This document shows, piece after piece, positions 50,977 through 54,438 of a DNA stretch of 64,000 nt. Source of the stretch: Escherichia coli. GTDB lineage: Bacteria; Pseudomonadota; Gammaproteobacteria; Enterobacterales; Enterobacteriaceae. The DNA lies in the NCBI RefSeq assembly GCF_036507355.1, contig NZ_AP027877.1. The stretch is one strand, 5' to 3'. Below the pieces are notes generated by a model, which was not told the DNA's origin, did not search any database, and worked only from the letters and a program-made list of their open reading frames with translations. The translations under genes were made by a program, and so were the position numbers. Within the stretch, counting starts at the first letter, position 1. Every line of letters starts with the position of its first letter.

Positions 50977-53085
50977 TCAGGCTGCGGTAATCAGCCAGCA
51001 GTTGTGGATCTGGCGGTTACGGGCGAAATCCTGGGAGAGCGTTTTTTGCGTAATTTCTTGTGCTTTCAGTCCCAGTTTTGCCAGGCCGTCGAGATCCATA
51101 CGGAAGCCACGTTTGTTGTTCGAGAACATGATCGTCCCACCTGCACGCAGCAGACGTTTCAAATCTTTCATCAGCGCCAGATGATCGCGCTGAACATCAA
51201 ACGCATCTTCCATTCGTTTTGAGTTAGAGAAGGTTGGCGGATCGATAAAGATCAGATCGAACTGTTCATTTGCCTCACGCAGCCATGCCAGGCAATCGGC
51301 CTGAATCAGGCGATGCGCACGCCCGGTTAGGCCATTCAGACGCAGGTTGCGTTCTGCCCACTCCAGATAAGTACGCGACATATCCACGGTGGTGGTGCTG
51401 CGTGCACCGCCTAATCCCGCATGCACGGTGGCGCTGCCGGTATAAGAGAACAGGTTGAGGAAATCTTTGCCTTTGCTCATCTGACCGAGCATACGACGGG
51501 CGATACGGTGATCGAGGAACAGACCGGTATCGAGGTAATCCGTCAGGTTCACCCACAAGTGAGCGTTATATTCGGTAACTTCAAGAAACTCGCCCTTCTC
51601 GCCCAGTTTCTGGTACTGGTTTTTGCCCTTCTGGCGTTCACGGGTTTTCAGCACCAGTTTGTTTGGCGCAATCCCCAGTACCGAAATGGTTGCAGCGATA
51701 ATATCGAACAGACGCTGACGCGCTTTGTGAGCATCAATAGTTTTTGGCGGTGCATACTCCTGCACCACCACCCAGTCGGCATAACGGTCAACGGCAACGT
51801 TATATTCCGGCAGATCGGCGTCATACAGGCGGTAACATTCAATTCCTTCCTGGCGAGCCCACTTCTCGAATTTTTTGAGGTTCTTACGCAGGCGGTTGGC
51901 GTAGTCTTCCGCTACCATCGCCGGTTTGCTGTCTGGAGTGCTTTCGACAACGTGGTAATTTTTCTGTACGCAGTCCAGCGGGCCGTTTTTCGCCTTGTAC
52001 TGTTTGTCTGCACGCAGCTGCAAGCAGCTTAGCAGATCCGGCGAGGCACTAAACAAAGAGAGATTCCAGCCACCAAACTGGTTTTTCATGATCCGACCCA
52101 GCAGGCTATGCAGCGCAATCAGCGCCGGTTCGCTGTCCAGACGTTCCCCGTATGGCGGGTTGCTCAACACTGTGCCGTACGGCCCTTTCGGCAGCGGATT
52201 GGTCAGTTGCGCGACATCTTTCACCTCAAAGGTGATCAGTTCACCAATCCCCGCAAGACGGGCGTTAGTGCGTGCACGTTGAATCACCCGTGCGTCGCTG
52301 TCCGAACCGTAAAAATGAGAGCTATACTCAGCCAGGCCTTTACGGGCGCGAGTTTGCGCTTCCGCTTTCACTTCCTGCCAGATAGCTTCATCATGCTGCG
52401 CCCAGCCGCTAAAGCCCCAACGCCCACGGTGCAAGCCTGGTGCGCGATCGGTCGCCAGCATCGCCGCTTCAATCAGCAACGTACCGGAACCACACATCGG
52501 ATCGAGCAGCGGTGTTCCTGGCTGCCAGCCGGATCGCATCACAATAGCGGCTGCCAGGGTTTCTTTGATCGGCGCAATACCAGCACGATCGCGATAGCCA
52601 CGCAGATGTAAACCATCACCACTCAGATCAAGAGCGATACTGGCGGTTTCTTTATGCAGCCAGACGTTAACGCGGATATCCGGCGCATCGCGATCAACAT
52701 TTGGACGCGGCAGATTTTTCCGCGTGAAAGCATCGACGATCGCGTCTTTCACTTTCATCGCGCCGTACTGACTGTTGCGGATTGTGTCATTCAAACCACT
52801 GAAGTGGACAGCGAAGGTCGCGCCAGGATTAAACATCTCTGTCCAGTTGATCGCCTGAACACCGAGATAGAGGTCTAAATCGCTGTAAACCTTACACTCG
52901 CCCAGCGGCAACATAATACGCGAGGCCAGGCGGCTCCACATCAGGCTCTGGTAAACAAGCCGTGTGTCGCCCTTGAAATGGACCCCACCCTGAACCACCT
53001 GGCATTCAACGGCCCCCAGGTTTTCCAGTTCAGTTTTTAACAGCTCTTCCAGCCCACGGGCCGTACTGGCAAACAGAGAATTCAT
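50977..53085 (-). CDS. rlmL: Bifunctional 23S rRNA m2G2445/m7G2069 methyltransferase RlmL (RlmKL, YcbY)
   Basis: 702-aa [28 protein letters not shown]. Confidence 0.93.
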
Positions 53086-53328
53086 ATCGTCACTTTTACT
53101 CTAAGAGCCTACCGCAGTAGGCGTAATTGTTGCAGTCAGTCTGGACATGGACAGCGCGGAGAAACCGGAGCGTACACAAGTACGTGAGGATTTCGAGCAC
53201 AACCCAGGGCCAAACTGACAAATAAAATAGCCTAATGGGACAGGCGCTAAGAAAATTGTTGCGCATTATAGCTAATAAGCGCGTCATGTCATAAAGTTGA
53301 GGGCTTATTTTCATTTGAGGACCACACC

Positions 53329-54438
53329 GTGGCGACATTAACCCGGCTTTTTATTCATCCTGTTAAATCGATGCGCGGCATTGGTCTTACACATGCTCTG
53401 GCTGATGTCAGTGGTCTGGCCTTCGATCGCATCTTTATGATCACGGAACCTGACGGTACGTTTATTACCGCTCGCCAGTTTCCCCAGATGGTACGGTTTA
53501 CTCCTTCACCTGTGCATGATGGCTTGCATCTCACCGCACCAGATGGCAGTAGCGCATATGTTCGTTTTGCTGATTTCGCCACACAAGACGCACCAACCGA
53601 AGTTTGGGGCACACATTTTACCGCGCGAATTGCGCCAGAAGCGATCAACAAATGGTTAAGTGGATTTTTCTCCCGCGAAGTGCAATTACGCTGGGTGGGG
53701 CCACAAATGACCCGGCGCGTGAAACGCCACAACACTGTACCCCTGTCATTTGCTGATGGCTATCCTTACCTTCTTGCTAACGAAGCCTCGTTACGTGATC
53801 TCCAACAACGTTGTCCGGCCAGTGTAAAAATGGAGCAATTCCGCCCCAATCTGGTGGTTTCCGGCGCGTCAGCCTGGGAAGAAGATAGCTGGAAAGTGAT
53901 TCGTATTGGTGATGTGGTGTTTGATGTGGTTAAACCTTGTAGCCGCTGTATTTTCACCACCGTCAGCCCAGAAAAAGGGCAAAAACATCCGGCAGGCGAA
54001 CCATTAAAAACGCTGCAATCTTTCCGTACTGCCCAGGATAACGGCGATGTCGATTTTGGCCAGAATTTAATTGCCCGTAATAGCGGCGTGATTCGCGTTG
54101 GCGATGAGGTGGAAATTCTGGCAACGGCTCCGGCAAAAATTTACGGCGCAGCTGCCGCTGATGATACTGCCAACATCACGCAACAACCGGACGCCAATGT
54201 AGATATTGACTGGCAGGGACAGGCATTTCGTGGAAATAACCAACAGGTGTTGCTGGAGCAATTAGAAAATCAGGGAATTCGTATCCCTTATTCTTGCCGC
54301 GCGGGCATTTGTGGAAGTTGCCGTGTTCAGCTTTTAGAAGGCGAAGTCACGCCGCTGAAAAAATCAGCAATGGGCGATGATGGTACCATTCTTTGCTGTA
54401 GCTGTGTACCGAAGACTGCACTTAAGTTGGCGCGTTAG
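53329..54438 (+). CDS. ycbX: MOSC-domain protein with C-terminal 2Fe-2S ferredoxin domain YcbX
   Basis: 369-aa ORF, GTG start; C-terminal CRAGICGSC ferredoxin motif. Confidence 0.92.

Follow-up and report, generated by a model that had tools for sequence, protein, structure and literature searches.

What is the GC-rich segment that lies between the divergent genes rlmKL (rlmL/ycbY) and ycbX of Escherichia coli? We analyzed a 64,000-nucleotide stretch of E. coli DNA (the window) in which the rlmKL coding sequence occupies 50977..53085 on the minus strand, with its ATG at 53085-53083, and the ycbX ORF occupies 53329..54438 on the plus strand. Both were placed by the ORF list and RefSeq, and the gene names were taken from the RefSeq annotation of 99 to 100% identical E. 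coli DNA, including K-12. The two ORFs bound a divergent intergenic region of 243 bp (53086-53328), as a first-pass annotation of this DNA had described it. That annotation had also pointed to 53140-53215 as comparatively GC-rich and had left the segment unexplained, offering a long 5' leader or a small RNA as candidates. The GC fraction is 0.566 in 53140-53215 and 0.531 over 53105-53247, versus 0.394 in the spacer outside the element described below and 0.511 for the whole window. The segment is GC-rich relative to AT-rich promoter DNA only and is near the genomic average. In the current K-12 record (NC_000913.3), no feature is annotated in the rlmKL/ycbX spacer. Comparison with other loci and genomes, the only way in which this can be seen, now accounts for the segment as a copy of the dispersed palindromic repeat RSA. 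The best explanation, which we hold with high confidence, is that an RSA-family transposable element inserted in the rlmKL/ycbX promoter region and now lies in the leader.

The GC-rich stretch is the center of a 143-bp imperfect palindrome at 53105-53247. Positions 53100-53250 are predicted to form one long imperfect hairpin on either strand, and the 143-nt core folded with -55.5 kcal/mol (z = -5.6), a stability reached by 0 of 200 shuffled sequences. Using a profile HMM made from 60 non-identical complete copies of the repeat, we obtained a match to 53105-53247 of 133.9 bits (E = 4.9e-40, nhmmer) that covered model positions 1-143 of 145. The opposite orientation scored only 22.5 bits, so the polarity of the element (plus strand in the window) is defined despite the palindrome. 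Compared with the family consensus, 126 of 144 positions were identical. Searching the entire 64-kb window with the HMM returned this copy and no second one. The feature is far beyond chance.

The family to which this copy belongs is widespread. Sensitive blastn located the 151-bp stretch in 5,425 of 5,426 complete E. coli genomes, at a median of 5 places per genome; MG1655, C600, J53, and other K-12 records have 6 places each (blastn, E ≤ 1). Related copies with 72 to 85% identity were found on plasmids of Klebsiella, Citrobacter, Enterobacter, Salmonella, Pantoea, Serratia, and Yersinia. From an alignment of eight copies from six genera, we chose the block GRCAAATAAAATAGCCTRATGG, the most conserved of the family (53213..53234 on the plus strand of the window), as the query and scanned one genome from each species with it, which gave at least 120 matching stretches across Enterobacterales, often with many copies per genome. 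Among the matches listed were Photorhabdus, Xenorhabdus, Serratia, Erwinia, Pantoea, Klebsiella, Raoultella, Citrobacter, Kosakonia, Enterobacter, Cedecea, Leminorella, Salmonella, and several Escherichia species.

While inspecting the plasmid matches, we noted that dozens of plasmids of Klebsiella, Citrobacter, and Enterobacter carry one and the same RSA copy (as in plasmid pKOR-e3cb of Klebsiella oxytoca, L005:2504-2648), which shares 84.8% identity with the copy in the window. It lies directly 3' of an efflux permease gene annotated as RND/MFS and upstream of an acyltransferase gene, and it evidently hitchhikes with a shared plasmid module. Several PLSDB records, namely, NZ_OL790696.1 (4.80 Mb), NZ_CP141089.1 (4.94 Mb), NZ_CP134663.1 (4.90 Mb), and CP061233.1 (1.0 Mb), are of chromosome size or carry core genes (glnA and rlmKL). 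They look like mislabeled chromosomes or fragments, and E. coli counts “on plasmids” should be discounted for this reason.

The genomic context of the copies was assessed with crude ORF heuristics, which placed 25 copies between codirectional genes, 20 between divergent genes, and 6 between convergent genes, with 39 unclear. Among the codirectional copies, an orientation bias of 17 versus 8 was not significant. By this crude count, convergent (terminator) spacers appear to be underused by RSA copies. Many copies lie between cotranscribed genes in operons, such as qseE-qseG (L003:1506-1649, L057:6287-6430, L076:996-1139, and L090:4230-4373), hemE-nfi (L096:347-490), malF-malG of Pantoea (L008), and xylA-xylB of Yersinia (L009).

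A repeat of this description was recorded in K-12 decades ago. The original K-12 GenBank record held 6 occurrences of RSA with a length of 150/151 bp, alongside 19 of IRU (127 bp) and 33 of BoxC (56 bp), as tabulated in a 2004 paper (PMC5172473, Table 1). In our family, a body of 144 to 145 bp plus two 3-bp flanks gives a unit of 150 to 151 bp, and the rlmKL-leader copy measures 143 + 6 = 149 bp. RSA, which has also been published as “BEE95,” is known from E. coli and other enterobacteria. Our family shares with it the unit length including flanks, the six MG1655 copies, the imperfect palindrome, and the intergenic, often intercistronic, dispersal in many enterobacterial genera. Among size, copy number, palindrome, context, and host range, we found no feature in which the two differ. 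We therefore take the element to be RSA on the basis of its size, copy number, and palindromic, enterobacterial, and intergenic character, rather than from a published RSA sequence or published coordinates. The GC-rich segment is an ordinary copy of an already known repeat family that was described in the 1990s and is not a new RNA gene.

The ends of the element were defined using the 63 copies in which both could be located. Body length was 144 to 145 bp in 45 of these 63, and the family body starts with GAGCCTATCCCA and finishes with TGGGATAGGCTC. The triplets flanking the body were TTA on both sides in 20 copies and TAA on both sides in 16, with a discordant TTA/TAA pair in only 2. The base next outward of the triplets varies; left flanks favor C and right flanks favor G. 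Since fixed element ends would not give concordance, the 36 concordant versus 2 discordant flanks imply a 3-bp TWA target-site duplication. In the window, the left terminal inverted repeat is GAGCCTACCGCAGT (53105..53118 on the plus strand; family consensus, GAGCCTATCCCAGT), and the right one is AATGGGACAGGCGC (53234..53247 on the plus strand). The two match at 9 of 14 positions, compared to a family median of 11 of 14. Given these decayed repeats, the rlmKL-leader copy is probably immobile today.

The insertion can be read directly from strains that lack it. In APEC O1, the rlmKL/ycbX spacer is 97 bp, exactly 146 bp shorter by alignment, and its empty site reads ...TTTTACT followed immediately by CTAAGAAAATTG... 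while the filled site reads ...TTTTACT-CTAAGA-GCC...GGCG-CTAAGA-AAATTG.... The comparison of filled and empty sites, together with the TWA statistics of the family, places the TAA duplication at 53102..53104 (left copy) and 53248..53250 (right copy). The longest duplicated string that flanks the element is CTAAGA (left copy at 53101-53106), and from this locus alone, the length of the duplication is ambiguous between 3 and 6 bp. The filled allele is present with at least 95% identity in 4,190 of 5,425 E. coli genomes (77%), and about 23% are without it. An orthologous copy that has diverged further is found at the same position in Escherichia sp. E1V33. Given this filled orthologous site, E. 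coli strains with an empty site could have lost the element precisely or had the allele replaced, as an alternative to ancestral absence.

A second polymorphic site was identified between glnA and glnL, where 993 of 5,425 E. coli genomes have a copy. The O157:H7 and CFT073 alleles are about 144 bp shorter, and their empty site, ...GGGAT-TTA-GTTGCC..., fits the right-hand junction of the filled allele, whose left junction has decayed. This polymorphism, as judged from the aligned alleles, supports mobility of the element. The copy lies in the glnA 3' untranslated region (3'UTR), the region of the GlnZ small RNA (E. coli STEC639, L006:1486-1627; empty site in O157:H7 Z563, L132:201-377). In K-12, the glnA-glnL spacer (L131:2429-2622) holds an insert unrelated to RSA. 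We considered whether the “REP” insertion in K-12 GlnZ could itself be RSA and rejected this, as the RSA HMM had no match at the K-12 glnZ locus; the RSA copy linked to glnA is part of a different allele type. A “230-nt O111-type” glnA 3'UTR with a 98-nt insertion between AGGUUCAAA repeats has been described (Miyakoshi et al. 2022). The glnA-linked RSA allele is probably this type; the AGGUUCAAA repeats resemble the paired arms of RSA, and the difference of 230 - 85 = 145 nt fits the RSA size.

By size (143 to 145 bp), multiple copies, internal ORFs without a Pfam match, terminal inverted repeats, a target duplication, and empty sites at two loci (rlmKL-ycbX in APEC O1 and glnA-glnL in O157:H7), the compared sequences indicate that RSA is a genuine miniature inverted-repeat transposable element (MITE). 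Among paired ends 0.2 to 5 kb apart in 1.09 Mb of loci, we found no autonomous parent with matching ends. The transposase family is consequently inferred solely from the TWA duplication. A 3-bp TWA duplication is a hallmark of some IS5-family and PIF/Harbinger-type enzymes. RSA resembles Tourist-type MITEs, the IS5 family, and PIF/Harbinger in its terminal inverted repeats and 3-bp TWA (TAA/TTA) duplication, but this assignment is by duplication type only, and no cognate transposase gene was found. One apparent autonomous candidate, a 1.6-kb TAA-flanked stretch in L118, was rejected because it consists of a solo end and a separate full copy. A subfamily of 206 to 208 bp, of which we saw 17 copies, shares its terminal inverted repeats and its TAA/TTA duplications with the main family. 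It occurs in Kosakonia (L106, L108-L110, L119, L122, L123, L126, L127, and L129) and in the soil MAG CTSoil_132 (L019-L022). Its extra internal sequence might hint at an autonomous parent.

Another enterobacterial repeat had to be considered at this point. ERIC/IRU elements are enterobacterial imperfect palindromes of about 127 bp that reside in transcribed intergenic regions, are MITE-like, and show presence/absence polymorphism between strains. A diverged ERIC/IRU copy would share with RSA the intergenic palindrome of the 130- to 150-bp class, the MITE-like nature, and the polymorphism, and by eye, the central motif GGAGCGTACA..GTACGTGA recalls GGAGCTTACA..GTAAGTGA of ERIC. However, even with the cutoff relaxed to E ≤ 10, the RSA profile missed the genuine ERIC copies in the fetched loci. 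Conversely, the ERIC core (blastn-short) detected ERIC copies but no RSA copy. The two families also differ in their termini and length, with ERIC copies starting with TATACCC and measuring about 127 bp versus 145 bp for RSA. We regard it as extremely unlikely that the element is ERIC rather than RSA. Genuine ERIC/IRU copies do occur near RSA copies (L013:7570-7613, L124:4990-5030, L018:11799-11838, L108:5326-5366, and L010:921-964), and in L010, a Salmonella plasmid fragment, the ERIC copy lies about 200 bp from the RSA copy.

With the element identified as RSA, its position relative to the promoters could be examined. A promoter scan found a near-consensus sigma-70 promoter for rlmKL at 53257..53292 on the minus strand, with ATGACA at -35 (53292-53287), a 16-nt spacer, and TATAAT at -10 (53270-53265), matching the consensus at 11 of 12 positions. 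The main rlmL transcription start site (TSS) in K-12 is 1006895 (NC_000913.2) with a 172-nt 5'UTR, and the 50 nt upstream of it are this promoter, which places the start at 53257 in the window (Kim et al. 2012). The same study lists a second rlmL 5' end at 1006936 with a 131-nt UTR, which corresponds to 53216, inside the element just after TATTTTATTTGTC. For ycbX, the supplementary TSS table gives 1006848 with a 25-nt UTR (Kim et al. 2012), or 53304 in the window, and the 50 nt upstream are 53254-53303. Cappable-seq, which takes triphosphate 5' ends only, agrees on 1006895 (score of 5.55) and 1006936 (2.04) and adds a start at 1007053 (2.94; U00096.2). This last start corresponds to 53099, 14 nt before the rlmL ATG and past the left end of the element. 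Its promoter would fall in the left arm, with a possible -10 of TAGGCT at 53112-53107, which suggests an element-borne promoter.

Because the start at 53257 is upstream of the element, the element is transcribed in the rlmKL leader, between the native promoter and the ribosome-binding site, and all of it is inside the 172-nt 5'UTR. The ycbX promoter region with its 25-nt leader (53254..53328 on the plus strand) lies wholly to the right of the insertion, and neither the rlmKL promoter nor the ycbX promoter is disrupted. By comparison of the alleles, empty-site strains would have an rlmKL leader of 26 nt. In the predicted fold of the leader (53257 to +30), the element forms a self-contained hairpin that leaves GAGUAAAAGUGACGAUAUG unpaired. 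The 16 nt between the element and rlmKL (53086..53101 on the minus strand), which contain the ribosome-binding region (GAGUAAAAGUGACGAU on the mRNA), are likewise predicted to be unpaired. The start of the leader has a terminator-like motif, namely, a hairpin of 5 pairs (53245-53230) with UAUUUUAUUU behind it. Read on the minus strand, the family's most conserved block gives a small hairpin and then UAUUUUAUUUG, likewise terminator-like. In the folding model, this small hairpin is weak, with 5 pairs including one G-U, and competes with the long stem.

Of the two possibilities raised by the first-pass annotation, the long 5' leader is therefore borne out by two independent start-site datasets, and the segment is both transcribed in the rlmL leader and conserved within most E. 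coli. The small RNA is not supported. The case for a separate regulatory small RNA that starts within the spacer would draw on the strong predicted structure (on both strands), the capped minus-strand 5' end at 53216, and a match to the Xanthomonas sX9 family. However, a scan of the spacer with Rfam 15 at permissive E values gave no family at the gathering threshold, and all matches were subthreshold and at chance level. The sX9 match (53120-53185 on the minus strand, E = 0.023) reached 25.8 bits against a gathering score of 44; it lies over the tip of the palindrome and one of its arms and most likely arose by chance. The internal 5' ends are codirectional with rlmKL, upstream of it, and read into the gene, and the sequence is a multicopy repeat that is absent at this site from about 23% of E. 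coli genomes. We also inspected published K-12 Term-seq 3'-end tables (Adams et al. 2021), which are blank between 1,006,586 and 1,015,897 and thus list no 3' end in the spacer, with the limit that RNAs of about 40 nt would escape this approach. RNAalifold on the plus-strand alignment, which was gappy, did not recover the long hairpin, and per-copy folds were used instead. Across the family, these gave -63.1 versus -61.5 kcal/mol for the two strands (P = 0.035), a modeled difference that is weak, favors the direction opposite to rlmKL, and was not counted as evidence. With folds of equal quality on the two strands across the family, nothing points to RNA strand-specific selection. We consider an independent small RNA very unlikely.

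A small protein is even less plausible. The ORF list does contain an uninterrupted, ATG-initiated ORF of 80 codons on the minus strand (53096..53338), which the first-pass annotation had noted and judged to be noncoding, and our results agree with that judgment. Its ATG (53338) falls within ycbX, which runs on the other strand, and it precedes the first mapped minus-strand start, at 53257, by 81 nt, so that all mapped starts of that strand lie downstream of it. The ORF crosses the mobile insertion and is not intact in empty-site strains; a Pfam search gave no match, and none of the sampled RefSeq genomes has a gene annotated there. That it encodes a protein has, in our estimate, next to no chance.

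Returning to an RSA insertion that now lies in the leader, we propose the following history. A normal 97-bp divergent promoter region received a 143-bp nonautonomous RSA element at a C-TAA-G site, with duplication of the TAA. The insertion, its ends, and the duplication are seen in the compared copies and alleles; for the mobilization, we infer that a DDE transposase recognizing the terminal inverted repeats acted in trans. The element landed downstream of the rlmKL promoter and ahead of the ribosome-binding site. The main rlmKL(-uup) transcript, which starts at 53257, therefore carries it within the mapped 172-nt leader, where it is predicted to fold as a self-contained hairpin of about 140 nt. 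With the ribosome-binding site and AUG predicted to be left unpaired, translation should still initiate. The weaker capped 5' ends at the element edges (53216 and 53099) suggest minor promoters arising from the AT-rich ends and the flanking DNA.

We expect the effect on rlmKL to be small, although “small” is a guess; most likely, it would be a modest change in mRNA stability or processing, e.g., by RNase III acting on the long duplex. In K-12 GlnZ, the insertion forms a long repeat-derived duplex at which RNase III cuts extensively (Walling et al.). By analogy with this duplex, RNase III processing of the rlmKL leader is plausible.

Co-option goes further and would make the element a selected cis-regulatory leader of rlmKL-uup. 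It could serve as an attenuator (the small hairpin and U-tract at 53245-53220), as an RNase III-controlled stability element, or as a source of extra promoters. Several observations point this way: the transcribed element sits exactly between promoter and ribosome-binding site, a terminator-like motif begins the leader, two additional capped starts lie at the element edges, the copy has been kept at the level of identity given above in 4,190 genomes as well as in Escherichia sp. E1V33, and GlnZ offers a precedent of long repeat-derived stems that RNase III cleaves (Walling et al.). However, the promoter and ribosome-binding site are intact in the roughly 23% of E. coli genomes without the element, the small hairpin is weak and in competition with the long stem, and the Term-seq tables contain no terminated 3' end. 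Conservation within the species is, moreover, expected from vertical descent alone. We find co-option quite improbable.

In a related proposal, the insertion in the rlmKL leader would not be neutral: the duplex of about 140 nt and the two edge promoters would alter rlmKL-uup expression through RNase III processing, stabilization by a 5' hairpin, or partial attenuation. On a wider view, RSA would belong with the Tourist-like MITEs, those that duplicate TWA, as an Enterobacterales family whose transposase is missing. We offer this only tentatively and think it unlikely to be correct. If true, the 77%/23% split of filled and empty alleles would be a natural regulatory polymorphism of a ribosome modification/ABC-F operon.

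The Correia elements (CREE) of Neisseria offer a comparison. They are inverted-repeat MITEs of about 100 to 155 bp that insert at TA-containing targets, frequently in 5'UTRs. There, they are cotranscribed, their long hairpins are cut by RNase III, and promoters are created at their ends. The RSA copy described here is likewise an inverted-repeat MITE that is cotranscribed in a 5'UTR. The two are unrelated in sequence and host, and Correia elements duplicate 2 bp (TA), in contrast to the TWA of RSA. RNase III cleavage and promoter creation were tested for Correia elements, whereas for the RSA copy they would apply by analogy only.

The identification of RSA explains an odd spacer and warns against calling a small RNA or a small ORF there. 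It also shows that a repeat class recorded in the first K-12 annotation is no longer labeled in current RefSeq records. In the accessible literature, we did not find a statement of RSA as a genuine MITE with terminal inverted repeats, TWA duplication, empty sites, and a 207-bp subfamily, and its MITE anatomy and missing transposase appear to be little documented. As a polymorphic element in the rlmKL-uup leader, it is a ready natural experiment on the effect of a MITE hairpin in a 5'UTR.
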